A stretch of DNA of 35,843 nucleotides from Perkinsus olseni (Eukaryota): positions 1 through 35,843 of the forward strand of contig JABANN010000356.1 in NCBI GenBank assembly GCA_013115125.1, read 5' to 3'. Below the pieces are notes generated by a model that saw nothing but the letters and a program-made list of their open reading frames with translations, ran no database searches and was not told where the DNA came from. Positions 4,601 to 35,843 of the stretch are shown in pieces. The position numbers were made by a program, and so were the translations under genes. Position 1 is the first letter of the stretch; each line of letters begins with the position of its first letter.

Positions 4601-5372
4601 GATATATTGAATATCACGTTTTCATAGAGAAACTGTTGCGGACCCTTGCTAAGCAATGCGTATATGTGTCGTGTGTGCATGTGAGAAATTCCAAGTCGAA
4701 ACTCGGTATACTGTAGAATTGACCTCCCCACAACCAAGTCCCCGCTCTAGATGGCGGATTACACTACGACAAGAAGGCAGCTACTAGTTCAAGCTAACTC
4801 ATCCAATAACAATTCCGAAGTGTTACGTACAGGAAACAACAGACTGCCATATCGGGTATACTCGTTCCACGACACTCATTGAAACAGATACGTGGTCACC
4901 GCCTTGGAGCGCTTATCATGCGTGAGGTCTTAGCTCGCACTTCAAGCAGATTCTGAACCACCTCTTACGGCTCGGTGGCGACCCGCTCACGCGAAAGCGC
5001 TCCATTTTATCCTTCCTAAGACCCGTCCCCAGGAGCAGTATCATCATTCATTCGACTATCACGAGAAGGGCTATAAGATCTCGCAACCGACCCCCCGAGG
5101 CTCAAAGCGGGAGTTGCCATTACCAGTAGCTGGGGCTTGTGGGGTATCCTTTCTTGTCATCAAACAATTGTTGTTAAATCAAACTAGCAGACCGAATTGG
5201 CCGACAGTGGACTTAACCCGAATACGCGGCGAGGAGAATAAAAAATATTGAACTGCCTAGAACAATGGTAACAAGTGTGTCAATGTGAATGGTGCTGAGA
5301 AGAAGCCGGACTAGATGGTCCATCCGACAAAAGTGAAATCGATCACACGATCGATTTAGCGAGTATAATTCT

Positions 5373-8300
5373 CTAATGATAAGCTTCATTGTTTGCCTCT
5401 TTCTCTGCCGCTGCACAAATCCGGACCAACTGCCGACGGGACACAACGCCGCTTATCTGAAAAACCACGGGTGACCCAAGCGGTGACAACTGATGGAAAA
5501 ATCGCAAATGATAAAAGTATGTAGTGTATCATTAATCCAATATAAGATTATGTCAATACGCAACGAGTGCATGCTTCAACCTAAGATGCGCTCAAATTCA
5601 TGAAGGGCACCTAGGCCTCCTCGTGATACAAATCGTTCTCCTACGGAAATCCGTCCTTAAAACTCTCCTGTCCATTCATCTAGTAACGAAAAAATGATGA
5701 AAATCTCTCCATAGGTCTCTGGGGGACAACTACAACTGTGCCGTGGAGTACGCAACGAAGAAAGAGCGAAAACTACTGATGAGAAAGTTTTCACCCCAGG
5801 ACCGTAATTGCCTACCTTGCCGACCATTCCCAAATTGCCCTTCAAGTCCCCATGCATCACGAAAATCAGATCCGTCTTGTCGCGACCTTCAGCCGAGGGC
5901 CGAACGAACCAGCAGGAATAATCCAACTGAAAAAAGATACACCAAGAATAAGAGCACACCATGATTTAGGAACATGAAAGTGAACTCCTTCGTGACACGT
6001 CATACTACCAACAGATTCGCCCTATCCAGTTTACGACCTGGAATACGCTGTAGACGTTAACTACCTATGGCAATCACCATTGTATTAACAGTGGCATAAT
6101 AATGTCCAAGACAAATCCCATTATGGTCAGCAGCCCTGTGTCGTTCGACATCAATTCCCCTCCACAGTGATACCGATACGAGATATGAAACTATTTTCAT
6201 AACAGAAGACGGGAGGACAACAAAAAGTAGTGATTTCGGCCGTACGGCACAGGTCCGGCGATTATTGCTAGGCTGTCATAGTAAAGACTGTTGTTGAGGT
6301 TTTCAACTCGTGGAAAGGAATTTCGACAAGTGGCGATCTCGCCGCCGCCATCCCCGACTGAAGTATAGATTGAGCGATGATACGCGGATTCCAAGCCATA
6401 CCACACCTTCCACTACCAATCCCCTGATCGACTTAGAGTCCTCCTTCAATACGACATCATCTCCACCTAGCCTCTTCGGTACTTCCCCAACTCGCGCGCT
6501 CCGTGATAGTATAGCAGTGGAACCATCCTCAGACAGCGGCACTATGGCAAACATAATCATGTAGTCTCGCGTGCTCACTGGCCATATGGACTTGGCTGCT
6601 GTGTGTCTGAGAGAACCGGCAAATACTAATACTACCAATACTTCTTACACACGGCAAAACGCTCAAATTGGGGAGCGACCAGAGCGTATTCTCTCAGTCC
6701 CCGATGGCACCGCGGATACTAGAGCCTCATTTTGAGCGGATACTCAGGCAAATCCATCCTGTCCTACGACCAGGGAAAGGCGTTTCACGATTCTACTTTT
6801 TCTGACACCTCTAGCTGTCCATTACTCCCCCGATCCCTTCCCGTACTTTATCATACAACCGTTCTCCTCCACTATTGCCGTCTGGTAGTCCATCGTTTCA
6901 TCGCATCGCTGATACCGATCAAACTCAGTGAGAGCACTTATCTGAGCATACCGAAGACTGCACCTCCGAACGACACCGTCCAAGTGAAATTCCTTGTAGC
7001 TAGAGTAGAGATACACAAGGACTTAAGACACGACACTCAAGACCGAAAGAGACTTGAGTTTGATGGAATATATAATGGTGGTTTGTGGCATGCAGTGATA
7101 TCATGAAACGCTCGATCTTGTCCACTTAGCGAATCACAACGAAGCTGCGTCACGCGCCAGCTAATGCACGCATCACAGGATCACTGCGACGCCGTCACAC
7201 TTACGTTAGCGCGTCACGGAGTGAATTGTGATCTATATCGATCATTCGGGCGCGCGCTTTCTCTTACCATATCCCGCGTATTGGCGTTCAGCCCACGACA
7301 GGTTAAAGCAAAGGATGGCCACTGGTTTTCGGGGAACAAATCAAATGTCGAGTATACCTGTTAATAAACGGCAGACACCTCCTCATAATACATCATCACC
7401 AACAAGAGCACTCCTTGATAGGCAACAGTAATGGCCATCAACCAACTAAAAGCCATACTAACTGGGCCGCCGTCAGAGTGAATGCCTAGGACGACCCCTG
7501 TCGGTCAACTCTAAGATACCAATCTCCACAAGGTAACAGCAGCAGCAGCAGCAGCAGCTCCTGCTATCACACAACGACGATCAGCCGACAAGGGACTATC
7601 GGATTCTCGATAGTTCACGATTCTTCGGACCAGAATCAAAATCTCACGCGAAAACAGCCCTACTACCGAGGTAGCATTGACCTCTCTCCTGGCTACCTTG
7701 CAGTCAGGTTCGCTGACTTCCGTATCAGACGTCCAGTGAACTCCCCCGGTAAAGATACTCTGGGATATGTCAACCTGCCTCCTACGATCATGTGCTGCCG
7801 GTAGGGAATGCGGGAAAGATGCTGAGAAAGAAGGAATAAATATAGCGACTCATTCTGGGACGTATCTTTTCCATTCGTCATATGCACGCTCAACCTCACC
7901 CCCACTCACTGTCCACATGATCCTGCTGTGGTATGGTAGGCAGTACCTCATCGATCAGCTGATCGATAAGCTCCTTCATCGGCACGATAGGTAATGTATC
8001 ACCACTTGCCTCCTCGAACGGGGCTAAAGTTTCAGAACGATAAAGATGACGATGATGAACACCGCACACTCATTTAGTAGTCCCAGTACTGTCCAAGGAC
8101 AATGCAGATACGTACCACAAATTCAACGACACTGAAGACCTAAACCCGAGCGAATTTCAAGGGCGCTGAGACATACTACAATATTACTAACTGTAAATCG
8201 TTTCAAACGCTACAATGCGCGCTAAGGATACGGATGTTCTCGAACACGCGACTCGATATGGCATCGACCATGGCCGATCGAACGGTTGCCGTTCAGAAAC

Positions 8301-11942: not shown

Positions 11943-12748
11943 TCAGCCCTCCTCGTCGTGATACACAGCTTCCCCATGTCTGCGAAGCTTTTTCACAGCC
12001 TTCTTGACGAATTCCTTCTTCACAAATTTATCCATCCAACGCCTCCCGTACTTCTCGTAACCGGCGGGAGGGTGGGTCTCGACGTAGTTGATCAATGAAG
12101 CACATCTTTCGCCTTCCATACCAGCATCGAACTCTTCTACGATTTTATCGCCGACGTGGGCGAAGGGATTGTATTTCATGAACTTTCCATTGATTTCCTC
12201 CGACGCGCCCTCGACTTTCCCTCCCTTACTCCCGCGGAAGTACTGTAGCGAAGCCATCCCTCGAGGCTTCAGCCTGAGACGGACGAGCAGACCAACAGAC
12301 AGAAGGGAAGGAAAAACGAATCTCACCAATATTCGACAGAGGTGACCTTGGGTGTGTAAGAGACGAATGTAATCGAATGACCGCCACCTTCATAAATTCT
12401 ATGGAGAACTTGAAGAGAAGCAGGGCCTCTGTAACCCTTGTAGCAGTTGGTGGATGCAGCCGAGACCTGGAAGGCACCCACGCCGACACACGATTCAGAT
12501 CAAGGTCTTCCTACGGTACGAATCCTACCTCTTCAGGAGTCGTATCCGAAGTCCCCGCATTAGGCTCTGAGGACGCAGGGGCGGTGTGGCCAGCGACATG
12601 CGCCGTCTACGGGGGAGTATGGATTGCCAGTAATGATCATCAAACTCACCTTAGTCCTGCTGCTGGACTGCACTCCCATGACGGAGATGAGGCTCGACGA
12701 GAAGAATAGTGATGCGAACAGGAAGAATATACGATTGACGGTTCCCAT
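11943..12748 (-). CDS. Secreted protein, 215 aa, 4 exons (paralogue A, intact)
   Basis: Exons 12650-12748, 12529-12606, 12327-12466, 11943-12273 (648 nt); GT-AG introns of 43, 62 and 53 nt. N-terminal signal peptide MGTVNRIFFLFASLFFSSSLISVMG. C-terminal domain with NPFAH..C.SLINYVETHPPAGYEKYG..W is shared with paralogue B. Confidence 0.88.
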
Positions 12749-13101: not shown

Positions 13102-13325
13102 AGAACCCGAGGGGAGGTACCCGAACCATCAAGTTCGCCAAGGCGAGCGGAGTTGGATGTACGAATCTGAAACGGGAATATCTATTCCATCGTAGAGAAA
13201 TGCGGAACGATTTCTTGTGGGGGAAACCTCTAGCTGTGGTCTGATGTGATTACGCCTTCTAGCCGCGCGCCCCGGGCGCGCTGCGCGCCCAACCTCAGCG
13301 TTTATGGGTTTCCGCACGTGGAACA

Positions 13326-13516: not shown

Positions 13517-14302
13517 ATTGTCCGTAGCAGTTTTTTGCACTTCACTCTCCAATGAACACGAAAAGATACCGGATGGGCGAAACTTCGGTCATGTTATAAT
13601 GTCATGATGTGGTGTCTGGGGAGGCTGATCGACCATTCTCTCTTTTCATCGAGAAAAACGGTTTTTAGATTCTTTTTGTCGGTCGTCAGTTAATATACAG
13701 TGATCTGGCGCTTTCTCCCATGGATTTGTCCCCGTTCGGTAGCCGGAAAATCCCCGTCCGGACTGCAGAAAAGTCCATGGGAGATTGTGCGAACTCGCCC
13801 TGGGCGAGCAACACTTGCTTGGCTGCAACTACTCCTTGCATTACTCCATTGCCGAGTGTAGCTAGTCATGTGCTCAGGCTCGATGGCCGTGCATATGCAC
13901 CTCGAAACATAACAGAGAGTGGTCAGCAACTTTAGCCCGCTCTTTGACACCGCCAACGAAGCTGTTGATTGGCCGCTGCCACTGCCGTCGCCGCGGTGTG
14001 CAGTATATGGAAGAACTATTTGATGATCCAACTTGTAGCATGTTCGCTCAACGGTCGAATGGAATGGTCATCTCATACAGCAAGGCTGTGATATGATTTC
14101 GTTTACTTAGCACAGGGTCGAATCCTAAATGAATAGAAATGATAGTTATGTTGTCGTCTACAACACGACACTGTCGTGACAAGACATCAGAACATCGTTG
14201 TTGTGACAGCTCGGCATCACACAAACATAACAACATGATATACTGGGAAAGTCTGAGTGAGAATCAGCTGTCTTCACCGGCTCACTATGCACGTATTCCA
14301 TG

Positions 14303-15054
14303 TTAACTCAGCCTCTTCACAGCCTTCTCGAAGAACTTCTTCTTCGTGTACTTTGTAAACCAATCCTTTCCGAATCTCTCGTATCCAGGGGGTGGGTTGG
14401 CCTCGATGTAGTTGAACAAAGACCAGCATTTCGACTCGTCTATACGCTCCTTCAGTCTTTTCATTATTTCATCCACCAAGTGAGCGAAAGGATTATGCTC
14501 TCGATAGTTCTTTTCGATTTCATCTCGAGCCCCTTCGACCAGTGCCCCCTTCGAGTGTTCCCATCCTTTCAAGTATTTCAGTTGTGCTCTCCCGTCTTCG
14601 CCCACCCTGAAAAGGCTGTCCGATGCATCACGTCGGACCCTAACCGAGTGCGGTAGCAGAACGGCATTTCCCATCACGGCTGGTGTCACCAGTAGTTCAC
14701 TATCCTGCGTCCGCTCTCAGTGATTTCAAGTGAGATACTGTACCTCCGTCGTGAGTTCTGCTCAAGTGAAGCGAATCGTGTGGTCCGTAGTATCTCTGGC
14801 AGCTCTTACTGTCGAATTGGACCTGGGAGGATTTGTGAAAGATTTGAAGAAATGATGCTTTGATGGTACGTCATCTCCCGGGCTGGCGGGAACTCCATGG
14901 ATCGTCAACAGCACGGGAAGGGCCGTCCGCCTGAAGAAGCGCACGTTGTACGGCAGAACTCTCTTAAGCATACCTGAGGCCGGCTTGACTGGATAGCCGT
15001 CACCGAAGTTAAGGCCGGGAGTAGCAAGAGAAGAGAGTGGGCAGCAGGAGCCAT
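14303..15054 (-). pseudogene. Secreted-protein paralogue B with two frameshifts
   Basis: Same 4-exon layout: 14974-15054 (signal peptide MAPAAHSLLLLLPALTSVTAIQSS), 14870-14930, 14690-14822, 14303-14606. Exon 2 is 61 nt (+1, giving TGA at 14871-14873). Exon 3 is 133 nt (-1, near 14741-14746). Homology to paralogue A switches frame at that point. Confidence 0.78.
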
Positions 15055-15449: not shown

Positions 15450-18400
15450 TGGTCGGACCGAGTGTGGAGTGGGAGCGGAGGCTGCATTGATAGTCATTGG
15501 TCACTCGGTTCTACCATCGGTTCTCACGAAGGAATTCTTCGCAATCATCATCATGCAATAGCAGAGACATGGAGCAATCCTCTTGCTACTGGATGACATC
15601 ATGTGACGATTGTTATTATTATCATTATAATCGCTCCTCTTCATATGCGGTCCGGGTCCGTAGACAGGTTTCAGGCGACTGCGGCGGTCTACACGGGGCT
15701 TAGGCGGCTATCGTTATCCGCACTCTCCTTGCGCCAAGGGTGATAGACGTTTTACTTGCGACTCGAATGGTCTATCATTGCAGACATATGTCGATGCGCT
15801 CCAGCTCGAAAGAAGCCTCCCGACCCAGTGCTCGTCGGGGTGCTCCAGGCAAATCCTTTCTCAATTTGTTTCTCCGACATGGATGGTGTCTTCTGCAGCA
15901 TAGTGCTATGACGGCTACGATGGGGAGTGTTGTGTTGAGTACGAACAACTCACGCGTTTTTACCGATTCACCTGTATTGGGGGTCGCTGGGGTTGTTATT
16001 GGCAGTGTTATTGAGATTGATGGGTAAGGTCCGTCCTCAGAAGAAGATATCGGCGGCCACTAGTGCCCCTTACCAGGGTAATGCACCAGCAGTGGAGAAA
16101 GGAGATGATGATGCTAGGATGGAGATAGAGGCTACCCATGGTAGTTGGAACAGGGGTTAAATCAACAGGGGTTCAGAGAGCGGTAACCACGAGTCGTACA
16201 TCCGTTCTCCTCGTTATCACTATGATAGCATTACGAGATGGCGTTGCATAGAATGGTAGCTCTCCTGCAATGTCACCGCTGTTGGTGTTGCTGCTGTGCC
16301 TTAACTACTCCTCTCAGTACCCCAGAGTGGTGACGATGTAGTGTCACACCTGCTGGATCGCAAGACCAGTGATGTAACGGTGATTGGCTTGGCTAACTTC
16401 CTTTCGACCCCGACCAAAAGGGGATACCGTCTACTAGCATCTACTAACTTGCTGGTGCTCATGCTTCCGAGATTGGGAGTGGACGAGAGTCGGTAATAGT
16501 AAAGGGGGAACGGGAGAGGTCAGCGCGCTTTGCCGCGTATCTTATGTTGAAGCCTGCCGTTGACAGTCGCGTATGATATTAAATACCACGCATACCACGC
16601 GCCGCATCAATGCCTGTGGAGTTAACTTATCGTAGACTCGTCGCGATTCAATCGCCTGCTCCGCTACTGAGGTTGTGTAGCAGTTCGGAACCTCCATACC
16701 ACAACTTCCCGTAATCTCAGGCTACAGTCGGCTCCGGTAAGGCAGGCGGTGCTCAGCGTCTACACCTCGGCAGTATCTTGGGCTCAAGAGAAGCTTTTGC
16801 GGAATCTTATTAAGAAGCATGCCCTGATCGATACGGTATCGGAAATGGCGCTCGTAGTAGACCGGTGACTGAGCGTATTTTAGGTCATGTCGACCTTGAG
16901 GGAAGATATGCGTATCTTATCCGATCCAACCTCTGCTCCTGCGAAAAGCAAGAAGGGAAAGAAGTCCAACCAGCGGCAAATTGACAGGGAGGGCCGCATC
17001 GAGATTGTAGAGGCAGAGTGGGAGCTGTTGGGGGTAGTAGGGGTGCTGGGGCGACCTAGGCGACGATCATCAGATCGACACTTCCCGATGATAGACGCTG
17101 CCTGCGTCACGCTGGTGTTGTTTGAATCTCCTACACCGTTGCTGAGTACTAAGCGGATTTCGAGAGAGGATTGTGGCGAAGAGAGCACGCGTGAGTTGTA
17201 CTTGAGGAGCAGTATTTGGTTCAGGGTCTGGTCCGGTTATGTGCACCCCCATTACAGCCTGTCTTGCCGCCAGAGGTTATTGACCTAGCCCTGCAGACCG
17301 CCCTGTCTAAAGGATGCGACCTTTCGGTGAGTCCTTTCTCCCTCCTAGCGGCCGCTAGTGAAGATGAGTACCCCTGTACCGCCTGACAGTAGTACCATCA
17401 TGCCGTGCTGTGAGGGCTCACTGTATCGGAATCGCCTTCCGTAGTTGTTGGTTTGTATCGGATATTGAGAAGGTGCCCTTATTGTAGGTGAGAGTGGCGG
17501 CAGGCAACATGCTATCGAGAGTGGCAATGGAGGAGATGTGCTCAGGTGAGACTCGTCTACCGCCGCGATTTAGTCGGTGTTTCGCTCCTCGTTGACGAGT
17601 GGTCTTCGCGACCAGTCCTGCTTCCGTCAGATTGCTGTCTAGCTCCTATGACTCCTCGAATTGCTGATGTGGAGAAGGCGATACAAGATGCTGAGGACCC
17701 CCTTCTAGCGGCCGAGCTCATGTCCGGTAGGGTTACGCTGTCGGGGTCGGGCGGATATATTAGTCCTCAGCGCTTTGTCGTGGATACCATATGGATCTGT
17801 TTGCCCCGGAGAAGGGAGGGAAGGAGAGGGCGGAACGAGTTGTCGAGGAGATACATCGTGTGGTAGGTTGTGGATCAGGCGAGAGGTTAACGGAGGGGGT
17901 GGTAGGGTGGACTGAGAATGGGTTCCGGATCATCATCACGGCGAACCCGAACTCTGAGATTAGTCGCGTAGACGGTACACTAATCTGCTTGCTTTATACA
18001 TATGCGATAAGGACGAATATCTCTCGATAGTAATATATCCAGCCAGTGATGATATCCCTCACAGCAATTGATAGTCTCTAAGGGAAATGCGCACCTGAAT
18101 CATATCATGTAGATCTAATATCAATGATATTTATACTTATGATTGTACCTGTCATCGCACTCGGTTCACCAAACCCAGCGGGGGATCGGCAGTGTAGTGG
18201 CTGACTTGAGATTAACCATCTATGCTCGGCATTCTTGTGGTGACCTTTCCCAGTAGACCGCAGATCGCTCCTACGCTTCTCAGCGTCCAAGGCTTGCTGT
18301 TCAGGTGAGCTCTGCTGGAAGCCATCTCGTCGACGGCTTCATTGATGTTGTCCACACTGTGGCTTCGATCCAACCTGTAATACTGTATACTTCGCATGGG

Positions 18401-21722: not shown

Positions 21723-23497
21723 ATGTCCTCCTCCTCATCATCGCTGGGCAGTGGGTGTCGAATGGCCCAGCCGTCATTAACAAGTCCGGCTCTACTGCAT
21801 CCCCTCAGCAACGAGGATGTCTATAGATTGCATGCTAGGATTGGGGAGTTGACTATGGAAAATGAAGCATTGAGGAGGCAGATTGAACAGAACCGTTCAG
21901 AGGAGGTGACGAAGGTTATTGGGCGTGCAGTTCACTCGTGGCCAGTGCTAACGATGAGACCGATTGTGGATCGATCGGCTGATCGATATATAGTTGTAGA
22001 CGATTGAAATTTCCCGTATCGCCCTGTCAAACCGGGATCGGACTCCGATAGTCGGAGTTTCGGCGGCGAAAGGGAAGAGCAGCTGACTATAACGAGGGAA
22101 TGCAACATGCAGCAAAAAACGAGGCCACTATGCCACGTGGCGAGTGAACGGTGGTCGAACTATCGCAACAGCGACGAGGAACTACTGCTGCTGTCTCCAA
22201 CCCTGCTGCTGCCGCGTGGCATAGCGACCTCATTATTGCATGATGAACTTTTCCTCTCACGGACTGTACTATGTTCTTATCTTTCATCCCAGTGCTCTAG
22301 GCAGTAGAGGGGGATGTTCCTGAGAGAAAACTGCGCCCTCCCTTCTCGAGTGATAGTGCACCATGATGACGCCTCATTTGTTACGCCTGTTCGAACCCTG
22401 TGTGGAATGATGCTCTCTGCGCTACTCAGGCCCACCACCGGTTACCAGGATCGATCCTGTCATCGCCCGCTATAGCAGACCAGGCTCGACTGCTCCTTTC
22501 GTTGGCTGAGAGCGTCAGGAGCGGAGTCCCCCCAGTGGTGGAGGCTGGCGAGTTGGGGGAGGCAATAGCAGCGTTATGGAGCGCTATCAAGGGAAGGATA
22601 CGATTAGCGCAGGAGTTTGGGTACGACCCAGCCAACTGCTCCGGCGAGGCCTCCTGCAGGTACCGAGCTGCTGCACCGCCGGCAACAGCTCTATCGCCGC
22701 TACCGGAATCGGCCGTAGTGAGGGCTAGAACCAGGAAGCCATTACAGACAGTGGTGGAAGGAAGCGAGAGGGTTGAGGAGGCTGAGAGCACAACAAGAGG
22801 GGACGACCTGAGCGAGGATATAGTGAGGCTGAAGGACATCCGGGAAGGGTGGGTAGCGTTGTGTATCGCTCCGCTGTTCATCAGGGTTTTTAGTTTGGGG
22901 AATATCCTTGATGGCACCACAGAGCAGATCAACAGCCGGGCAGGTGCCGAGGTGAAGCCCCCGGCGACAAGTCTGTCCAGTCCTATTTTGAAGTCCCGAC
23001 TGCATCTGAGACAGTCATTACATCATCCACCTCCGGCAACACCAGCTAGCTCAGCGCGGAAGAGGTGGGCGCAGCTCTGGAAGCATCTGAAGGTCCAAGG
23101 TTCGAACCCTTGAGCAGTAGTTACGTTCAGGTTGTCAAAACTGCCCAGCCCTTCACCGATAAGAGGGTATCCTGCGCACGCGCAAGATTCTCAGCATTCC
23201 TTCCAGCTGGACCGTTCATCCTGTGCGTCCCCTCTATGGTCTCGCCGAAACGGTGACAGCTCACTGTTTGACATTTCCGAATCGACTCACTATATTTTCC
23301 GGGATAATATCCCCGCGACGACAGGCAGCATGAGTGGCCCAAAGCAGTGTCGTGAGCCACTGAGGCAAGATGCTCTCGGAACCATCACGGCGCTCGAGTC
23401 GGCCTTTGGCAAGCAGGGTGATGATGAGAATACTGCTGCTAATGCAGAGGTCGTATCGTCTGAGTATATAGTGACTAGGAGGCGATTCAGCATGTAA
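21723..23497 (+). CDS. Hypothetical protein with N-terminal coiled coil, multi-exon
   Basis: First exon contains LHARIGELTMENEALRRQIEQ. Long open exon block at 22430-23091. Last exon ends ...TRRRFSM* at 23497. Internal junctions only partly resolved. Confidence 0.6.
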
Positions 23498-23737: not shown

Positions 23738-26700
23738 ATGTCCACCGACCCCGTAATACTCAAGGCCATATGCTCATGCATCTTCACAGAGGGTGACAGA
23801 GACCGATTGAGCTACTTCGAGATAGTCACTGTGAAGCGAGGCGACCGAGTGAAGCTGTGCTACCTGTGTCTTGGCCGCCATGCCTTCTACCTCCTCCGGA
23901 TGAACATGAAGGGCCTCATTAGCAGTGGGACAATCGAATATGATAGCATCGATAAGGTAGCCGTCGCCAACGTGTGCGAGTCGGTCTTAGCTGATTTGGC
24001 TAGGCTGTGGTGGACCCAGCTAACAACTCAGCAATGCTGCTGATCCTGATGGGGATAACTGAGTGGGAGGACAATCAGGTGGGTCGGTAGGCATACTGCA
24101 CCATCAGTATTATGCGCACACCTTATCGATTATGGTGAGGCTTGCCTACTTCGGATCCATCGAAGTTTAAGAGCTCGTAGTTGGGCCATGTCCATAGTGG
24201 AATTTTAGTACTGCGTGGATCCCTAACGGAAAGTGAAGTCTCTCTCAGGTCTCATTAGCGTCCGATGACCGCCATAATTTGCTGCTGCGCCTCGTTGTTG
24301 CATGGCAAACGCATCACATGTGGAAAAGCAACACGCTGCAGTACCTCCCTGTAGTGGAGTACTCACTTGCTCCCTCGCAACAGGTGAGCTACCGCAGCAT
24401 ATGGATTGTGGTTGTTGGTATGCTTTCGGGTAATTTCTAGCTTTCTTGGTGGATAAATCGTTCGGGCGAAAGATAGAAAGTCACACTACATGACGAGAGC
24501 GATGATCGAGAGATGATCATAGAGCGATATAGGATGGAAATTCTGCAGGTCTCGAGTTTCAACTTTGTCATCGTTTCCGCATGCGCCTTTCAGGTGCCAT
24601 CACGCATGCGGGTTCATCCCTTCAAAGGCTTCGCCAGGAAGGAAGTGGGAGGCTATTCTATTTTCCTCAGAGAAAGCTTTCAGGTGAGAGTGCCTAACAC
24701 TATGTGTGCTGTTTGGCAGTCACAGCCGCAGAAAATAGTTCAACCTCAATTTCAACCTGGGCTGGTAATACCAGCCAGAACAGAATTGAACCAGAAATAC
24801 CAGCCTGGTATTTCTGGTTCAATTCTGTTCTTACAGTTGGCTTCATTCTCTTCCTTCGTCTTTCTCGAACAAACTTCGCATGGTCAAGTCTTTCACGACC
24901 GCTTGTTGTTTTTTGCCCACCGTAGTTCCAATATATCTAGCTAATTCCTGGCCATGTGTCTGGTAAATTGAAGTGGATGCTCTGATGGGCCTCTCGGGGA
25001 CGGTCACCATGTGTGTGGGGTGCCCTGCGACCGACGAGCTGTGATATTTGCGGCCTTCCGTGGTGGCTCTGGCCACCACTCTGATCGCCACTGTGGTGGC
25101 CCACCACTGGTGGGACATATATCTGAGTCCAATGATCCTCGGTAGAAAGGCTTGTGTAGTTCTTTCGTCCCAATATGCTTTTCTTTGGAGGACTCGGAAA
25201 ATAAGCAGACCTTGATGGCGGTCTTTAATGATGTTAAACAACTCTTTCGTGCGGCGGGAGTATTAACCAGAGTCTTAACTCTGGTGTGCGGTACTAACAG
25301 AGCCACCACGCGAGCTGCTTGCGCTGTATTTGACGAGGGTATTCACATGGGGCAGATCATGTGCCATCAGGCAAAGATGCTCGTTGAGAAATAACCGTCG
25401 GTCAGTTGGACTTGAAACAGCTGAAAATGACCACGCTGATCATCAGCGGCTGAAGTTGGATTTAGAGGCATCTGATGGCAACCCCAACTCTGTGATTGGC
25501 ATTCACCCCATCAACTCGGAATCAGCGTCCAGTTGACATTACACCCGTTGAAGTTTCCACTCACCCCAGCTGCTGCGTAACTCCTCACGGCTCTTGCTAT
25601 CGAGCACACTCGGATGGGCCAAAACAGATTTTCGGCGTTCAGTGCTAGGCGTCCGAGAGCTCGTGATGAATCTAATGTGTCGGCTTTAGGAGCGGCCGTC
25701 TGACGGCTCCTACTTGGGGACCAGTAGGGAGTACAACTTCGTGGAGAGCAGAGGGATTGAGGTAAGCCCTTACACAGAGAGCTTGTAGGAGAGAAGCCTT
25801 GCTGCCTCTAGTGTAGGGTCCGAATCGAAGAGCCGATTCCCATTGACTGGGCGAAGGAAGAGATAGCTTTGAAGTGACCACAGGGCGCCATAGGAGCACA
25901 TGATATTCCTTGATATACGCTCGTGCGCTGCCACACTGGATGCCGTTATCCGGAGCGTGCCGTCTTCATGCTGTTCATGCAGAGCCCTCAGGTTTCTAGC
26001 AGTCGAAGAGAGGCTGAGAATGATTGATCAAGCCGGGACCTGGTTCAACGTCATCCAGTGAGTGCTCCTGTCCTGCTATTGCCTGATGGTGTCTGTCACA
26101 GAGACAAGCCTTATATGAAGCGTATGAACTTGAACGACGATCTGTCAGAATGGTCTGGTTGGGAGTTCCTCTCAAAGACGATGACCAAGGCCTCGGCTTG
26201 CGTATTACTACGACGGTGGGTTCCCGCGAGCTTGTGATCGCTCTCGAGGAATGACTGACACTTTGTTATCGTGTATCGCACAGGCATCACTTTTGATGCT
26301 CTACTGCTGCCTCCTGGCCTCAGGAAGTACACACCGCCCTTGATGGATAATAGACAAGATATAATAGTAACCGTACACTGCCCCACGAAGATCATGGGAA
26401 AGGGCAGGTGAGCGACTAGAGGGAGCAGCGTCGACGCCTCTCGACCACTCGTAATCATGCGCTGGTCGGTAGCGCATCGGGGGCGGCTTTTCCTCTGACC
26501 TCAATGGCCACCTTGGATGCCTCCAACATAAGGGCCGCGAGGGCTTTTCTGTCTCTAAGGTTCACGGATGATGAGCTGCTCACCGAGTGCCATATAATAG
26601 CCGACTCTATCACTTCTATGAATGCGACATCCACAGTGTAAGAATTTTACTTGTGGCGTTCACGTCGCTGGCCGAGTTGTTCGACAGTGGTTCGTGCATG

Positions 26701-29700
26701 GTTTGGCTTCTTCCTGATGTGCTGTGATTGAGGTACTGTGACATGCTGCAGGCCAAAGTGGATGCTCTCATGTTCAACTCAGAGGCCTATAAATGGCTGA
26801 ATTCTCGACTGGATGTGCGACCAAGCTTTGCGGTAGGAATTCTCACCGTGTAATGAACGGTACGGGGAACGCCCAGGTTCATTCTGCGGAAGGTACATGC
26901 CAAGCCTATCGTCGCTGCTGTGATCAGCTTGCTGCAGAGGGAAGGGCTCTTGCAGGACAGGAAAGTAGCAGGTTGAAAGATGGGCCATTTTGGCGAAATT
27001 GATACCCCGCTGGAACATCATAAATATCCTAACACTACTCATTTAATCACTGTCCCTCCAGGCGCGATGCGATGGTTGATACTCTGCTAGTCTCACAGCA
27101 CTCTCACGGACCCACAATCTTCATCATCAGGAGCTGCTGCACTCCATCGATGAGCGCCTCCCGACGAATTTGAATCTGTGTGATATGATTGAAGACCTCA
27201 AGTGGGCTTCTGTTGAGGTTTGTTCGGGGAGGACAAGACCCTATTTGTTCCTAAACTCGTCACCATACGCTGTGTAGGGGTTCGGGAATCTTCTCAAGAG
27301 TGGCAGCGTCGGCGACGATAATGCAGAGTACGATGCAATTCGCAATTCATGGTGAGTTTGACTTGGTGATAGCAAAAGTGGAGAACCCGGGCATCGATCC
27401 CGGTGCCTCTCGCTTGCTAAGCGAGCGCTCTACCATTTGAGCTAGTCCCCCATGCCCGTCGAGTGTATATTGGTGCCTGACTAATCTAAGGGAATATCTC
27501 CGCTGAAGGCCAGCCCTATTACTGTTGTCTGTACAGGTACAGTCGCGTGTCGTCATATGTTGCTTACTGTCTCGATGGAGGTCTTCTGGGGAGCAGACTG
27601 GCTCTCAAGCTCGTACTTGGATCCTTATGCGAGCTGCGCTCCCCGTCCGTTCGAGAGAGCATCTCATGTATACGTCGTCAATCGGAGAGGCCACAACCAA
27701 CTCCCCTCATTAGGTCTGTTGAAGTTCATCCTTCACCTGCGACCTCGCGACTTAGAGAAGCCGTACCAAGCCGGCGATGTCCGACATCTCATTGGCGAGA
27801 ATGGGTCCCTGATCAACTACACATTCAATGCACACGTCATGGAGGTCTGTTGATAAGCTGGAAGATTGTTCGGGAGGGCGCAATTCTATGAGTCCCCGAT
27901 GATATTAGGTACTTATAGAGACAGACTTGCTCATGTGGCTCGTCGGGATTGACGCTATGCCAGCTGGAGGATGCGGAGCGGGAGCGTTATTCTCGCTGAC
28001 GAACCGCCTTTCCCCGGCGATGGTTTTGTCTAATGTGCTCGGACACAGGGACTCAACTCACTGCCTCAAGATGTGCATCTGCCGGTGAGAAGGGCACCTG
28101 CTGAGGGTGGGAAGTAGGTGAATATTTTCCGCGATTTCGAGGGGTGCAGATGGCTTGATCTGGGCCAGAGATTCCGGCCGTTGTGTCTGCCAGGAAAATA
28201 TCTGAGATGACACAGACTGAAGAGATTACCGTTGCTAGCTCTGGCTCGACGACACCGGGATCGGCAGACCAACGTCCGGAAACGCAGGGCAAACCACTCG
28301 AGGTGAAGCCACGCGGCGGGAGGAGCGGGAGCTTAGTTTTTTTGATAAAGGGCTTGCTTTACGGTCACATTACTATTCGGGGTTGCTTCACAGCAGGAAC
28401 AGTTTCGCGTGGTCGTAGCATGTTATTTTGTCGAAGAGAGTCGCCAAATCAACTTCCGTAACTTCTCACGTTCCGCTGATTGTAGTTACTGGCTGCTACG
28501 CTCTTGCAACTCCTGCGGAAAGAAAAATGCGTGCTCCTAAGAGCCCAGGTGTCAGCTGCCTTAACTGGGATTATATCAGCCGATAGAAGCATGAAAAAGC
28601 CCTTAGCGGAAGCCGGATTGATGGAGCTAGCGGTGGATCTTCTCGACATCACGGTGAGTCCAAGGCTTAACGAAATCCTGTATATAAGAATAGGCTACGT
28701 CTTGGCATCCTCGTGAAGCCTCGATTGACCAATAGGAGGACCTCTAATATCTGCCAACAGCTTCGACGTCACCACTACGTCGCGTAGTGTGCGGGGGGTC
28801 TGCCCGGGATGAATTCTATCCGATAGAGTGTGGAACGCTGAGAATACTGGCCTCCCCTTCGGCTCAGCAGCCGATGGACGTCGTCCATTGGACGACGCCG
28901 TCTCGCAGCTTGCAGTCGTGACAGAAGCATGCTACTGTGTCGCTGTAGGATGACGGCTTATTATTGGCTGCTTTGAGACTACTCGAGTGCGTAGTGGACG
29001 AGTCAGACAGGACGAAGATGCTCGTATCACCGCGAAGTGTTCTTCGCCCTACAGTGGAGATTATCAAGTCTTATTGCGACACTAAGTGAGTCGCGACACA
29101 TACTTTCATTGTATACGCAGACCAGGTCCAAATCCACGGTGGTTGCACACGCGTGCCACCTATTGGCGGGCCTCTGTACTGATGACGCCACTCGAGCGGA
29201 GTGCATTGCGAAGTAGGCTGCCGCTATTGCAAGTTCCGGGAGATCGCTCACCGCTGCAGCGTTCTGATTTTCAAGGTTCCCGTCCCTCACAGATTGCGTT
29301 ATGCGGGCGTTTCGTGATGCCGCGTCGCGTAGTGCCGAACAAACGCTGTGCCTCCACGCCATTGATCGTCTCTGTCGGGGGCTTGACCAGGAGGGAGTGC
29401 TCAGCGTCCGGGACGCGGTGACTGGAAGTCTTATACGAGATCTCGGAGAGCTGTTCACTAGGCTGAGTGAGTGGCTTCGTGTGCATCTTATGGCGAGCTA
29501 CTGGGTCCTGTTCGTAACAACCATTACCATGTCTCCAACCGCTGTCGAGAATTATTCACGCCGATTATCGGTCCTGCTCGAGAGAGTATCCAAAGGCCAT
29601 TCAGAGTCGCTGAACACTGGCAGTATGTGCCATCAATCTGAAAAGTTCTATCCCCACCTGGGATACCAGGGAATTCGTATGTGCTGGCTAAACGAGCATG

Positions 29701-30190
29701 TCTTACTGTGTGACTGCTGCAAGTACGCATGATTTACTTTCCTCTGCGTCAGTTCCAGGCGCTGATAAACAGTGTGAAGGCCTCAAGAACGACCTCGAGG
29801 ACTTCCTCACTAGCTCCTTACAAGTCTTCGCCATGCTGGCGGGGGAGGGCATGGAGGCCAACTGTGTTTACCTCAAGGAGAAGGGATTACCTCACGTTCT
29901 GGTAATTACACTGGGGTGGCACCCAAAAAGCCGCCTGGGTCTCATACTAGAATTGCAGAACTACTGAGATCCGCCCAGATTTTGCTTGTGTGGTTCGGAA
30001 GTTGTTTTCATGAGGGTGGAATATAGTGACTGCTGGATGGGCGGTATGTCTGCTTCAGTCGGCGATGCGGTCGAGATTGCCGGAGGGGCTATCAGATCTT
30101 CATGCAAGAATCGCGGCATTGGACGAGCGTATCAGGGCAGGTGCTTCAGAACGCTCTGCGGCCTCCTCCAGGCTCATGGCTAATAGCTGA
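23738..30190 (+). CDS. Large multi-exon protein with C-terminal armadillo/HEAT-like helical repeats
   Basis: Exons MSTDPVILKAICSCIF..LCYLCLGRHAFYLL; SIFLRESFQ|ERPSDG; KPYMKRMNLNDDLSEWSGWEF; YTPPLMDNRQD; RVSSYVAYCLDGGLLGSRL; ARM-like AALTGII..LAEAGLMELAVDLL; final KGLPHVL|SAMRSRL...MANS* (TGA 30188-30190). Confidence 0.75.
24760..24831. repeat. Double palindrome (8-bp arms plus 27-bp arms), read as a hairpin-type transposon excision scar of TSD GCTGGTAT
   Basis: GGCTGGTA-a-TACCAGCC (24760-24776) abuts a perfect 55-bp palindrome at 24777-24831 centred on c24804. Confidence 0.85.
24845..25680 (+). mobile_element. Decayed Mutator-like (MULE) transposase fragment in a 1,006-nt intron (24684-25689)
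   Basis: Across stops and frameshifts: RLLFFAH..IEVDA (first Asp, 24976), SFVPICFSLEDSENKQTLMAVFNDVKQLF, LVC[G]TNRATTRAACAVF (expected second Asp is GGT at 25290), and QIMCH. Order and spacing fit the MULE DDE domain. Confidence 0.55.
25093..25114. repeat. Hairpin-type excision scar, inferred TSD GTGGTGGG
   Basis: GTGGTGG-c-CCACCAC-TGGTGGG, exact fit to 1-7, 8', 7'-1', 2-8. Confidence 0.7.
27379..27451 (-). tRNA. tRNA-Ala(AGC), antisense within an intron of the ARM-like gene
   Basis: 73-nt cloverleaf GGGGGACTAGCTCAAATGGTAGAGCGCTCGCTTAGCAAGCGAGAGGCACCGGGATCGATGCCCGGGTTCTCCA. G3:U70 Ala identity pair. TTTT terminator at 27374-27377. Confidence 0.96.
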
Positions 30191-30472
30191 TAATCCTTTC
30201 CCGCCCTCTGATGGACTTGTCGAGCAGAGTCAGCGATTACGCTTTCCCATTTTACCGGCGCTCACGGTACGCTGTTATTCTACAGGCCGCGGGCGGAGAT
30301 GGCTAATACTATACCTCGATAAAGTACATAGTAGCATACAGGTGAATGCGAAGGGGCTACCCTGCTGGTGCACTGAACTTGGTACTGCTGAGCTTGAATA
30401 TTCCCACAGAACTCACTAAGGAGATGGCTGATTGTTCTAGTCCAACTGTTCGCTACCTCTTTCCCATCGTCC

Positions 30473-33400
30473 ATGTTGAGATCTGCAACAACCGACTACG
30501 GCTCTCTATTGCGTGCGACAGTGTCCGCTATTGACAAGTTCGATCCGAACAGGCTAACTGTTGATGGTTACTTGGACGACTACTGTGAAGAAGTGAAGCG
30601 CGCGAAGGACGAAGTGAGTGGATCCTCCGACCTTACGGCGTCGCTCTCCTAGAACCTCCCATTCTCGGGGCTTTGAGCTTCTCCGCGAAAGAGGCAGAAT
30701 TCGCTTTTTGTGTCCAATGGTGTCGCATATGCGCAATCAGTGCACTCTAGAAATCGCGTACTCGAATGAGGGAACCAAATACATCGGAGAGGTTAGAAAT
30801 ATAAAGATGAATATGCTTGCGGGATACCACAGTGATTATATAGCCCAACGAGTTAGGGGGGATAAAACTATGTCGTGGGACAGCACCAAGGCTGATACAA
30901 CTTGAGTCCGCTGAGAGACATCTCTGAATATCCACACAACGCAATAACTATGATCATTCTACGATAGAATTTCTATCACAACTCCCTTATTCGCGGGAGA
31001 GCGAAGAAATCGAGCGCTTGACTGCAGCAGTGGATTTCAGGTGGAGGAAAAGTTCATCCGACAGTGCGTCTACGGATGCGTGAGATATCAGAAGTTCCTG
31101 AGAGTAGGGTCTCCTAGTCGCATGATAGTCGCTCCTTACGTATATTCAGATCTTCGTTACAGCGTTCCTCGAGTTCAGACCAGCTGTGACACAACGGGGA
31201 GAGCAAACCCTCTACATGGTGTGATGATCCACCCTGTCTGCAAGCTTCTCCCTGAGTCTCTTGCTAGGTCCTTGCCCACCTCATTTTCCTGCGCTTGAGG
31301 GAGCTTACGGTACCCGAGCTCGGAAGGTGAGCGATGTGTTGCTGTCCGTACTCCGCTCAGTAGCAGTCAGTAGCATTCGTTGCAATAACGAATCCAGCTT
31401 CTGGCCTGGGGCTAGCGGCAGTGGTTTTTGGCGAGTCAGCGTGGTTTCGGCTGTAGAGAACGGCGACTAGAAGCGTTGCAACCTTCGTCTTCCTTGGAGA
31501 CCGAGCCTCTCCGATATAAGGTTCCTCGATACCTGCTCCCCTCCAACAATGCTGGCGTTGTTGGAGTTCGCGTTCGATCGCTCGGCTGTGGAGTCCTGGG
31601 TCCATACTGAATGGGCGAAGATATACGATGAGAGGTTAGGCCTGCCAGTCATCTTCATGCGCAAGCCTTTCCTCGAAGGTTCATCGAAGAGTCCATTCTC
31701 AAGCCGATCGAGGACCTCAGACACGGTAGGACCCCTCATTAGCGAGATTTCATTCGAACAATTGATATTGAGATCTCCCGACTATAGCCAGCGATGCGGA
31801 AAAGGAGACTCGGAACTGCTAAGAATGCAAATCTGCATTAGCGGTTCTCACGGTCTCCCTTCCAATCATAGCGTTTTCAGAATGTGACACGTTGCTCAAC
31901 GCCGTATCGAGGAAGGCCACCGGGACCGATGCAAAAGTTGACCATAGCCTCCCACCTATCAAGCCGAGAATTAAGTACGCGTATACGGGCTTTCATCTCG
32001 GTCTCCGCTTCACCGCACCTTGCCGAGACTATCGCGTGTTGAGGCGACTGCTAGCCATTGCAGAGCCAGTGAATCGCAAGCGACACCGAGATACTCCTGT
32101 AGGCATACTGTACCCTCCCCCTTCCAACTCACTGAGCCGAAGCCAAGGCAGCTCCCCGTTCCGCGGGAGACGATCAAACCAGTGAGCGATTCACGACAAA
32201 TATACTATCGCCCCTCAATTGTTCGTCTTTAGGTGACAAGCAGGCCAGTGCCGGAATCTCTCAGTGCAAATTCGCTGCAGAAAATCAAAGTAGGCGTAGT
32301 TGTTATTAGGAAGTAAACTGCAATGCTTGGATTGTGAACATATACCAGAAGCGGGGGTCGAACCCGCGACCTTCTGCGTGTAAGGCAGACGTCATAACCA
32401 CTAGAATATCCCGGCTATGGCTTATTTATTCGAAATCGCGACGGGGCTTCGATCGTCGTATATTCAGATCTATCTTGCATTGACCAACGCGGTTCTGCGT
32501 ATGTAAATCATGTTCAGCGAAACCCCTCCTTGAAGCGAGAATCCTGGCGAGTCGCAGATTTTTAGCTTATGAAATTCTTTGGGTTGAACCGAAGATAACT
32601 ATGAGCGCCATCCCTCCCATACCGTTCCATGTAGGAGCAAGATGAGGCACGGCTACTGATGACGAAGGAAAAGACCCAGTCCAAGTATGGTGAAGATACA
32701 GTCCCGACCTTGGTCACAGCGGGCCGCGCAGCTGACATTGACAGCTTGCGGAAAGTGAGCGCATCAGACGCGTTCTGGAGAGTGAAGAGCCGCTACTTCC
32801 CATCACGTACGTATTTTCTTAGGAGATGGAGGATAAGCGATTCGCTGAGTGCACTTTCCAACCGAGTCCAGCGAAGCCCGTGCCGAAGGTCCTGCCAGAA
32901 TCCGAAGTGAAGGCCACGAGCGCTAGTTTACTCAGGTAGCTTTTCTGGGTGAGTGTGTGGCCAGGATTCTTCTCTAGCCGCTCCGTAAGCCCTGCGTAGA
33001 GTTCCTGTAGTTCCTGTGTTCCGTCTAATTCGGAAGTAGCAGGAAGGCTGGATAAATGGTATAGGAAATATAGGAGGCGTACAAATAGGCCTATCGGACT
33101 GAAGCACACCCTCATTGGCGAACAGCGCCCGGCCTTGTGACGAGTCACGTCACTCAGTGACGGTCACTGTGCCTCAGGGAGTACTCCCTGCTAACCAAGA
33201 AACAGGAACTGGAGCATGATATTCTCAGACAGTATCTGACTGAACTCAGGGATGCATCGGAGTTCCATGAGTAAGCTCCATCCAGGAAGGAAGCCGTGGA
33301 AGCTTTGATGCGTCAGTTGGCAGAACAGGATGTATGCCCAAGATGAGCTTGATGAGAAGCTTCGGCTCGAACGCCGCAAGGTTTGCTGCTTATCGGCAGG

Positions 33401-35508
33401 AGGACACGAAGGCCTGGTTTTCTCAGCTTGAGATGCACTTAGCCCGAGAGCAAGCGGCAGAGGCCTCGAAAGCGCACCACAGGCGAAATAATGTGATGGC
33501 AAACATTCAGAAAGAGACTGTCCGTGAAAAGTTGGAGGAAACCGAGAGGGAGATCGAAGAGGTGCCCGTCCTTGGGAAAGTTCTAGAATTATCAGTTCGG
33601 CCTTCAGGCACTTGACCGCAAGCGCGACCTGGTATCGGTGGTGCAGTCCGAGGTAGTCCCTGTCCGCTTCATTGACGTATGTTGTTCTTAACTCTCAGCG
33701 TGACAACCCACGAGAAGCTGAGCGGAGAGTCATTGAATCGAAAGCAATGGAGGCTGAGAGGGTTCGAGAGGAAAAGGCGAAAGAGTTCGAAAGGAAGCGG
33801 CTGTAAGTGGGCAGTGTCTCGAGATCAATCTAAATGAGCTTGAAAAACTGCGTAGCTCAGCTGTTCTGGATAGAATTTCCTCCTCTTCAGCGAAGACGAG
33901 TACGAGATGGAGAGGCGTCGTGACATAATAATGCAGATCAGAGCGTTGGAAAGAGTGAGCGTAGTAAGACTGTTGCAACAATTACTGCTGTGAGATGAGT
34001 CGTAGGTGAAAACGTTGCCATACGATCCGTCTGAGATCCCGCATCATGGCCTGCTAGAAGAAATGTCTCTGGCGGAGCTTAAGGAGCGGCTGAAGCTAGC
34101 GAAGGAAGCTGATGAGGCCGAGCGAGAGAACAGGTTGGCAGCTCACGGATCATGTGCAGCGTTGCCGCTATGATATCCGCTTACAGGCGAGCGCATAACC
34201 TCGAGCAAAAACGGATCAAGCACGAGTCCCTGCTGGCGAAGGCTGAACAGTTATCGACAGTCCGACAGCAAGCCCGTATTGAAGCGGAGGAGAGGCATCG
34301 CAAGGAGGCCCGGATGAAGGCGGAAGTAACTTGCCTGGCTGGAAGCGACACTCGACGCGATAGGCTGGGAGGCGTTCCGACAAAGAACTGAATCGGTAGT
34401 AAAGTATTGTATTTCAGGAAACGGCGTTAATGCAAGAGCTGCACGAGAAAGCTGTGGTTGAAGTGACAGAAAAGATAGCCGAGAAAAAGCGGCAACGATT
34501 AGCGGAGGAGCGAAGGTTGCAAGAAGTACGTGCTATCGAGTTCACAATCATGTGTGTTTAATCGCTCGAAACTTCCGTCCGTCTTCGCGTACTGTTCAGG
34601 AACTCAGAGAAATTACTAAGAAGAGAGCAGCCTTGGCCGAATCAGCGAAACTTCTCACTAGAAAGCGCCATGAGGAGCTCCATAAGGGCCGCAAAAGGTG
34701 ATGAGCGAGGTCCTACATGCTTTCATGACAGGCGCCCGGTTCGCGTCCTTCGTGGTGCAAGAATTCTCGTCTACTGGGGATAGCTTGAGCGCTGCGCTTG
34801 ACTAGTTGAGCGTTAAAATAGCCGACTTTTCTTCTACTAGGGAAGCTTCTCACCGTCAGAAGACTGTTCTTAATGACAAGTCTGAAGAGATGAAGGTAAG
34901 GCATGGGAGGGCTCCTCAATAATGCTGATCTGGTCGCGTTCCTGGCAACGGCTCGGCTGAGTTCGCCAGATACGCCACGGTCCGCTAAGTTGATTTGGCC
35001 GCCGTGTGCAAAGTCAGCGAACCATATCCTACAGGTATTAGCTCGATCGAAGGCAATAAGAGAAGCCAATGTTGCGCGAAGCCAAGCGGAAACAGAAGAG
35101 CTCAGGAAGAAGTAATAGGGGCTATCACAGTGATAGCCGTGATCGTGTCACGACCCTACACTGGCTCAGCGTCTTGATGATGGAGCTTTGCCACTACCGG
35201 TGCTCATCCTTAGATGTAATCGTTCATACTGTAGTTAGCGGGCTTGGCGGAAATGAGAAAAACTGCCGTGAATATTTTCGCAAAGGTACGACGTAGCCAT
35301 GGCGCAAGCTAGAGCAGAGGACGATTATCGCCGTAGCGTCACGAGGAGAGCTGTCAAGGGAGCGCATGCGATGCAGCGCGCCCAGGATGGAGCATTATCG
35401 AGACTAATGGCAGAGGCCAAGCCCTATACAGCCAAAGCAAATAGCAGAAGTATCGAAAATGCTCGATCACTCGCATTTCAACCCCGAAAGCATGCCCACG
35501 GATGTTAG
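30473..35508 (+). CDS. CFAP99: Cilia- and flagella-associated protein 99, multi-exon
   Basis: MLRSATTDYGSLL..FDPNRLTVDGYLDD|VEEKFIRQCVYGCVRYQKFLR|IFVTAFL..QTLYM; ESWVHTEWAKIYD; SRKATG; PFQLTEPKP; ECTFQPSPAKPVP; REYSLLTKKQ..ELRDASEF; YDPSEIPHHGLLEEMSLAELKERL; coiled-coil tail to TAG 35508. Confidence 0.85.
30956..30977. repeat. Hairpin-type excision scar, inferred TSD ATTCTATC (CFAP99 intron 1)
   Basis: ATTCTA(c)-g-ATAGAAT-TTCTATC, 21/22 fit to the pattern. Confidence 0.7.
32343..32415 (-). tRNA. tRNA-Val(TAC), antisense in a CFAP99 intron (32290-32634); possibly impaired
   Basis: 73-nt cloverleaf, anticodon arm TCTGC-CTTACAC-GCAGA, intact GGTTCGACCC B-box. T at position 10 breaks the 10-25 pair. 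No oligo-T terminator adjacent. Confidence 0.88.
33148..33169. repeat. Hairpin-type excision scar, inferred TSD CGTCACTG (CFAP99 intron)
   Basis: CGTCACT-c-AGTGACG-GTCACTG, exact fit. Confidence 0.75.
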
Positions 35509-35592
35509 TGTCTTCTAGAGAGTTTGTTGGTGTTGTAGAGTATTGCCTCACTCAAATTTCACCTCGAATAACAATATGACGCTGGCTGGCAC

Positions 35593-35614
35593 ATCAGGAC
35601 TCCTGATTCAGGAG
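35593..35614. repeat. Hairpin-type excision scar, inferred TSD ATCAGGAG (3' of CFAP99)
   Basis: ATCAGGA-c-TCCTGAT-TCAGGAG, exact fit. Confidence 0.75.
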
Positions 35615-35650: not shown

Positions 35651-35843
35651 GAAGCCCGGAGAATCTGCTTCACTTGCGATTCGCATCCTTGAGATACCTT
35701 TTTGATTGCAGATCGGAAAGCACCTACCAGGAGCGAGGATTAAACTCGCGCTCTTCTGCGTGTAAGGCAGACGCCATAACCACTAGACTATCCCGGCGAT
35801 AAACCCCGAAGAACTTGCTTCATCTACAATCCGCATCCTTGAG
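35651..35843. repeat. 150-bp-period tandem unit containing tRNA-Val
   Basis: 35651-35693 and 35801-35843 align ungapped at 33/43, exactly 150 bp apart, flanking the tRNA. Confidence 0.75.
35725..35797 (-). tRNA. tRNA-Val(TAC) variant or pseudogene
   Basis: 63/73 identical to the copy at 32343. T-loop is TTTAATC (C56 changed to T, damaging the B-box). Compensatory A-T pair in the T-stem. Confidence 0.8.

Follow-up and report, generated by a model that had tools for sequence, protein, structure and literature searches.

What process writes the same compact arrangement of direct, inverted and direct copies at unrelated sites along a single stretch of DNA, and what does the arrangement record? 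This question is raised by contig JABANN010000356.1 of Perkinsus olseni, an intron-rich alveolate parasite of molluscs. We analyzed the whole contig of 35.8 kb, here called the window, and all scar counts and shuffled controls given below cover the sequence of this window. An original prediction had described five sites here as the scars left by hAT transposons that excise with hairpins on the flanking DNA. We find eleven such scars, and they are probably the excision footprints of a cut-and-paste element that makes 8-bp duplications and closes its flanks into offset hairpins. Toward the hAT superfamily as their specific source we lean with modest confidence.

The scars obey a simple rule. From an 8-base word X, each one is built as X1-7, the complement of X8, the reverse complement of X1-7, and X2-8, which gives 22 nt with 14 constrained bases and a net gain of 14 bases over the single word. 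In its general form, the rule reads X1..X(n-k), reverse complement of X, X(k+1)..Xn, where n is the length of the duplication and k is the number of bases by which the hairpin closes short of the element. Ten sites fit the rule at n=8, four of them exactly, four with one mismatch and two with two mismatches (cumulatively 4, 8 and 10 in the mismatch-aware scan), and an extended form brings the total to eleven. When the series is continued from 0 to 4 mismatches, the observed counts are 4, 4, 2, 13 and 49, versus means of 0, 0, 0.1, 3.1 and 33 in 20 dinucleotide shuffles. Scanning the window for exact matches at k=1 returned eight at n=4, one at n=5, four at n=8 and none at n=6, n=7 or from n=9 to n=13, and n=9 stays near the shuffle expectation. 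At n=7, ten matches with two mismatches were found versus 2.95 in shuffles, and these may be the n=8 scars read out of register.

The offset and the centers of the palindromes are equally restricted. When n is varied over 6-12 and k over 0-3 in a grid, the cell n=8, k=1 holds the four exact matches and eight at no more than one mismatch, and the only other cell with an exact match is n=6, k=3, a low-information combination that is nearly unconstrained. Scars with offset 0 yielded no exact match in the window at n=6-12. The version of the rule with an uncomplemented center also gave no exact match in the window, and its four two-mismatch matches are, by our reading, the four exact scars with both centers scored wrong, while the even-palindrome version had no match in the window at up to three mismatches. 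Perfect odd palindromes with arms of at least 7 number 18 against 2.3 expected from 30 shuffles, and 13 of the 18 fall within the listed scars by our tally, whereas even palindromes with such arms (5 versus 2.8 expected in the same 30 shuffles) occur at about expectation. The scar pattern, its confinement to n=8 with an offset of 1 and its odd centers are direct observations, and chance is excluded as the origin of the n=8 pattern. Both the peak at n=8 above chance and the complemented central bases had been anticipated by the original prediction, and both are borne out within the window.

The five sites listed at first are all real: those at 25093, 33148 and 35593 are exact, the one at 30956 has one mismatch, and 24761-24811 is the extended form. 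The earlier tally of five in about 11 kb was, however, an undercount, with six more sites beginning at 28874, 12508, 17094, 25434, 18110 and 22036 (Table 1). The eleven 8-mers and their flanks are mutually unrelated, as had been noted for the initial five, and 8 of the 11 scars have no further copy of their own 7-mers within 200 nt. These two properties point to a process, and neither to a repeat family nor to a nearby template. The series of 0, 1, 2 and 3 mismatches fits decaying scars of differing age, and the excess at three mismatches (13 versus 3.1) suggests further, older copies. Candidates of this last kind, for example at 7178, 10744, 14243, 16432, 20019 and 21251, were left out of the scar count.

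Table 1. Coordinates of the eleven scars and of the transposase-like fragment in the window.
Feature	Coordinates	Strand	8-mer	Remarks
Scar	12508..12529	.	TTCCTACC	1 mismatch, inverted arm
Scar	17094..17115	.	GACGCTGG	1 mismatch, inverted arm
Probable older scar	18110..18131	.	TTGATATT	2 mismatches, first arm
Probable scar	22036..22057	.	GATCGGAG	2 adjacent mismatches at right-hand junction
Extended scar	24761..24811	.	GCTGGTAT	Two palindromes joined
Mutator-like (MULE) transposase pseudogene fragment	25078..25358	+		Two frames split by scar 25093; in-frame TAG at 25143-25145
Exact scar	25093..25114	.	GTGGTGGG	Shifts frame of MULE-like open reading frame fragment
Scar	25434..25455	.	CGCTGATG	1 mismatch, last arm
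Exact scar	28874..28895	.	ATGGACGA	Absent from the original prediction
Scar	30956..30977	.	ATTCTATC	1 mismatch, C for T at base 7, first arm
Exact scar	33148..33169	.	CGTCACTG	
Exact scar	35593..35614	.	ATCAGGAG	

The scar cluster spans 12.5 to 35.6 kb of the window. All ten clean scars lie beyond the first 12.5 kb, which contains only two three-mismatch candidates (7178 and 10744); this part carries minus-strand genes, including PIP5K, and has a negative GC skew. The older scar at 18110 contains an odd palindrome with an arm of 7 centered at 18124. On the plus strand, the base directly after the 8-mer is T at 8 of the 11 scars, and with both strands pooled, T after or A before the 8-mer is found in 11 of 22 cases. 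This bias may reflect a target preference beyond the duplication, for which a sample of 11 sites is too small.

Arrangements outside the 22-nt form were also considered. Scars with other spacings amount to 56 matches across 80 spacings, which, spacing 7 (6 matches) and the extended scar aside, is background. For the classical 16-nt footprint (spacing 1) the window contains no match, and scars this short are too poor in information to be separated from chance. Two further stretches were rejected: 15545-15603 is unconvincing, as it sits within an ATC repeat, and 13265-13290 breaks the rule, since its centers are not complements of the outer bases. The latter is a GC-only triple that reads GCGCGCCC, C, GGGCGCGC, T, GCGCGCCC, with two odd palindromes of arms 8 whose centers lie 9 apart, and it may represent a different kind of event.

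The direction of change can be read at scar 25093, which interrupts a fragment resembling the transposase of Mutator-like elements (MULEs). We collected 283 stop-to-stop open reading frames (ORFs) of at least 58 aa from the window, and a Pfam scan of them yielded one PIP5K exon and, at 25146-25391, a MULE match whose E of 0.0021 fails the curated cut-off. An exhaustive phmmer search with the 82-aa MULE-like piece returned four proteins at E no greater than 0.001, of which the only true relative is P0001, a 905-aa protein of Perkinsus olseni (E 3e-14, 58% identity); the domains of the other three are unrelated or repetitive. The fragment is 58-60% identical to residues 461-549 of P0001, and a tblastn search with this protein matches 25107-25358 (E 9e-24) with one in-frame stop, beginning inside the scar itself. 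At this point P0001 runs uninterrupted through TLYTTVVGHISE, whereas the window encodes TLIATVV in one frame and, 14 bases on, (L)VGHISE in another. Cutting the scar in silico from 22 bases to a single 8-mer leaves one frame, moves the start of the match from residue 466 to 461 and raises its score from 97.1 to 103 bits. Since P0001 is continuous across the point of the scar, the single 8-mer is ancestral and the 14 bases are a derived insertion into what is now a pseudogene fragment; at this one site, the polarity of the change is visible in the alignment itself. The location also disagrees with the claim that all of the sites are intronic or intergenic, which is not established, given that scar 25093 lies inside a transposase-like pseudogene fragment. 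As an outgroup for scar 12508, the paralogous orphan genes lose their similarity at 12248, and the duplicated tRNA-Val regions, taken as an internal outgroup, align within the tRNA genes only.

A second informative site is the extended scar at 24761-24811. Its parts follow in the order GCTGGTA, A, TACCAGC(C), a 27-nt perfect arm, a center C at 24804, CTGGTAT and the flank. The left palindrome is centered on the A at 24768 and has an arm of 8 that reaches one base into the left flank, and the right palindrome, centered on the C at 24804, has an arm of 27 that forms an inverted copy of the right flank plus the duplication. The two inverted tails lie end to end, with zero shared bases at the join. 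At both centers stands the complement of the 8-mer's outermost base, and each palindrome copies its own flank, over 9 and 28 nt respectively. Two hairpins opened independently and joined without homology would give this structure, and a single strand switch does not readily account for it.

These features can be assembled into an excision mechanism, whose element, transposase family, hairpin-opening distance and annealing step we infer. An element would insert and make an 8-bp target duplication. At its exit, the transposase would nick one base inside each flanking copy of the duplication, and the 3'-OH of the flank would attack the opposite strand, so that each flank would close into a hairpin with, at its tip, the complement of the base at which the duplication adjoins the element. 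Hairpin formation by a hAT transposase, Hermes, was reportedly described by Zhou et al. in 2004. Each hairpin would then be cut by host nucleases 8 nt or more from its tip and unfold into a 3' tail that contains the duplication in inverted form, the left flank becoming L X1-7 X8' X7'..X1'.. and the right flank becoming ..X8'..X2' X1' X2-8 R. The tails would be complementary over exactly the 8 nt of the inverted duplication and could anneal there, after which flaps would be trimmed and gaps filled. The expected product is X1-7, X8', X7'..X1', X2-8, a net gain of 14 bases, and if the tails were joined end to end instead, longer double palindromes like that at 24761-24811 would arise. The need to open both hairpins 8 nt or more from their tips would suit Mre11/CtIP-type processing better than Artemis-type opening at the tip. 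Annealing of the direct copies, on the other hand, would amount to precise, traceless excision, so the scars may represent a lower bound on the number of excisions.

Comparison with known systems places the scars closest to the footprints of hAT elements. In the passages of PMC5873905 that describe Ac/Ds excision, footprints in Candida, yeast and plants contain P-nucleotide palindromes centered on the complement of the base adjoining the element, with frequent microhomology and with arms that extend to 20 nt in yeast but to no more than 3 nt in Candida; 28 footprint types were distinguished among 128 events in Candida. The same passages cite earlier footprint work (Coen 1986, Weil and Kunze 2000, Yu 2004, Huefner 2011, Lazarow 2012). 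The scars share with these footprints, as described there, the retained 8-bp duplication, the complemented-center palindromes, the long arms that arise if the hairpin is opened far from its tip, and joining by microhomology. The duplication length agrees at every rule-fitting site (exact matches at n=8 only, ten at no more than two mismatches), and so does the complemented center, k=1 being the sole populated informative cell of the grid. However, the Ac/Ds footprints in these passages are experimental, heterogeneous and derived from a known element, whereas the scars described here are natural, dense and of several ages, with one detectable 22-nt outcome dominant; the 22-nt product is not named in the passages concerned. 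For Kat1, a hAT-derived transposase, the relevant part of PMC4763223 describes a flank hairpin formed mostly 1 nt from the terminal inverted repeat (TIR) and gives 8 bp as the length of hAT duplications. A hairpin that closes about 1 nt away from the element's end, as in that account, predicts the odd complemented center found in the scars, although the Kat1 results come from biochemistry on defined substrates and the scars are known from sequence alone. With its strict 8 bp, offset of 1 and documented footprint type, hAT appears to fit best.

A further comparison is offered by V(D)J recombination, in which the P nucleotides of coding joints arise from RAG hairpins opened by Artemis. These resemble the scars in being inverted copies of an end, made by off-center opening of a hairpin-capped end. 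RAG and Transib differ, however, in forming offset-less hairpins and even palindromes, with P tracts that are usually a few bases long and no 8-bp duplication, that of Transib being 5 bp. Even palindromes of this type occur in the window at expectation, and k=0 gave zero exact matches at n=6-12, a duplication of n=5 carrying too little information for the comparison. A full-text literature search found no fixed 22-nt scar and no excision scars in Perkinsus, although the figures of older yeast footprint studies may show the product. The scars are thus a known type of hairpin footprint, found here in a form that is natural, dense (10 clean scars in 35.8 kb), of multiple ages and dominated by one searchable outcome.

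Several observations weigh against hAT excision as the source of the scars, and some of them concern the direction of change. The polarity rests on one site and one paralogue of 58% identity, and removal of the scar at the other ten sites gave no systematic lengthening of ORFs, a result that is expected if those scars lie in non-coding DNA. Moreover, the 7-mer of scar 25093 and its reverse complement recur 20-33 nt upstream. Here, at 25060-25079, a perfect 8-nt inverted repeat, GTGGTGGC-TCTG-GCCACCAC, carries the same word as the scar and lies in coding sequence of the MULE-like fragment; chance, an older event or a local template could account for it. The upstream repeat is the kind of sequence that a transposon-independent error of replication or repair would use, in which an inverted copy of local sequence is added through fold-back priming or a brief switch of template. 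The scar is formally a direct, an inverted and a direct copy, and such a product can be obtained by strand switching. At scar 25093, and at that site alone, a local template switch is a possible origin. As an account of all of the scars, it is very unlikely: it supplies no cause for exactly 8 bases with complemented ends, a combination without any exact match at n=7, at n=9-12 or at other offsets; 8 of the 11 scars have no 7-mer copy nearby; and the extended scar contains two separate palindromes, each derived from its own flank. Template-switch and quasi-palindrome mutations are variable in length and use a nearby template, whereas the length of the scars is fixed at 8.

The remaining points against hAT concern the element itself. 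None of the 283 ORFs contains a hAT or BED domain, and no transposon with TIRs and a 6-10-bp duplication is present in the window (zero in a relaxed scan); a search of the window for TIRs with 8-bp duplications found one weak, chance-like pair only. The sole transposase-like sequence in the window is the sub-threshold MULE-like relic. The target consensus of Ac-type hAT elements is nTnnnnAn; among the scar 8-mers, 9 of 22 positions agree with its T (position 2) or A (position 7), and TA at positions 4-5 (Buster type) occurs in none. The consensus is only weakly visible and is uninformative. No empty or occupied allele was seen, and a metagenome scan for the empty-or-scar pattern of site 33148 gave zero matches. 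A metagenome scan with P0001 gave 44 pattern matches and no relative. While the 8-bp, offset-1 structure, the extended scar and the +14 polarity at 25093 support excision with flank hairpins as originally proposed, the assignment to the superfamily itself is not borne out by any hAT sequence or TIR element in the window, and the high activity that the original prediction ascribed to the element is not established.

The same excision-hairpin process could accordingly be attributed to another superfamily with 8-bp duplications, namely a Mutator-like, Merlin or P element or an undescribed one, an alternative that we regard as unlikely. It draws on the lack of any hAT sequence in the window and on the presence of the MULE-like relic, which has a full-length relative (P0001) in Perkinsus olseni. 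The MULE Muta1 leaves its flanking DNA with hairpins and creates duplications of 8 or 9 bp, which are used in repair of the donor site (PMC5499845, PMC5225508), and remnants of Merlin, with duplications of 8-9 bp, have been reported in Perkinsus marinus (PMC8101967). In contrast to the duplications of MULE and Merlin elements, which vary in length, the ten rule-fitting scars and the extended scar are all n=8, with none at 9 or 10; MULE duplications vary from 8 to 10 bp within a family, a range that includes the 8 bp seen here. The Muta1 hairpin, moreover, has no offset (43+43 = 86 nt), and offset-0 scars have zero matches here. Its excision in yeast is about 90% precise when the element is flanked by duplications, its other footprints being small deletions, whereas the scars are +14, offset 1 and n=8 only. 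An offset-less hairpin with mostly precise excision is thus not what the scars display, with the proviso that precise excisions are traceless and cannot be counted. In the literature found, the complemented-center signature is documented for hAT only. Dada elements, which have 6-7-bp duplications in P. marinus (PMC3706591), do not fit as a source.

Palindromes are a known trouble spot of library preparation, and fold-back chimeras introduced during sequencing or assembly must therefore be weighed. This explanation is extremely improbable: an artefact would not follow an 8-base complemented-center rule at eleven unrelated sites, nor would it yield copies with 1-3 substitutions. Six sequencing runs from two studies hold 0.99 of the 31-mers sampled from 24700-34699, a stretch with six scars, but this is weak evidence, as the runs may be the source of the assembly. 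In all, 11 runs were listed, with no RNA run among those containing the stretch; two divergent runs have a share of 0.28, and the contigs amount to about 43-59 Mb per run.

The surroundings of the scars include several other features. A PIP5K gene (PF01504) occupies 320-4409 on the minus strand and consists of about 15 very short exons (18-50 aa) separated by short introns; most of the exons are 88-100% identical to Perkinsus olseni PIPK proteins, and one exon alone is long enough for Pfam. The exon at 516-701 (minus strand) shares 98-100% identity with two Perkinsus olseni proteins and 80% with a protein of P. chesapeaki. Three tRNA genes, all on the minus strand, lie within 8.5 kb (27378-27451, 32343-32415 and 35725-35797) and comprise one Ala-AGC and two Val-TAC genes, the Val pair being 86% identical. 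A 42-nt repeat stands on both sides of the second Val gene (35652-35693 and 35802-35843) and has an inverted partial copy at 4935-4954. Two paralogous orphan ORFs on the minus strand, at 11973-12248 and 14297-14572, are 45% identical over 92 aa, and one of them is present in the ESM Atlas as a predicted protein; for one of the two (14306-14716), a search of 5.8 billion proteins found no homologue. The motif ATCGATC-N4-GATCGAT occurs in three copies (5338-5356, 7950-7968 and 21970-21988) with unrelated surroundings and no flanking duplications, and it may be a protein-binding site.

If the window is typical, the genome would be peppered with one stereotyped 22-nt scar, at about 10,000 clean copies in roughly 43 Mb plus decayed ones, an extrapolation that we consider conceivable yet rather doubtful. 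Were it true, no natural genome before this one would have offered a site-by-site record of cut-and-paste excision. The element behind it, hAT-like or undescribed, would have to be very active and for the most part leave its sites without accumulating, and the host would have to open hairpin ends 8 nt or more from their tip and reseal them through annealing, with no Artemis-type opening at the tip. The scars would also provide a steady supply of hairpins flanked by direct repeats in transcribed DNA, which are raw material of the kind seen in the 'introner' elements, with their inverted and direct repeats, of the related parasite Amoebophrya (PMC7789003).

Excision footprints are usually short and heterogeneous, so that old ones become unrecognizable in genomes, whereas the 14 constrained bases of this scar allow it to be found by rule alone. 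Such a rule would permit past excisions to be counted beside insertions and dated by their decay, the past sites of the element to be mapped, and local hopping to be measured. For an intron-rich parasite lineage, the process would be a recurrent source of +14 frameshifts and of small hairpins in transcribed DNA. This lineage adjoins the dinoflagellates, in which little is known of DNA repair, and the scars would let the opening and joining of hairpins by the host at DNA breaks be read without experiment.

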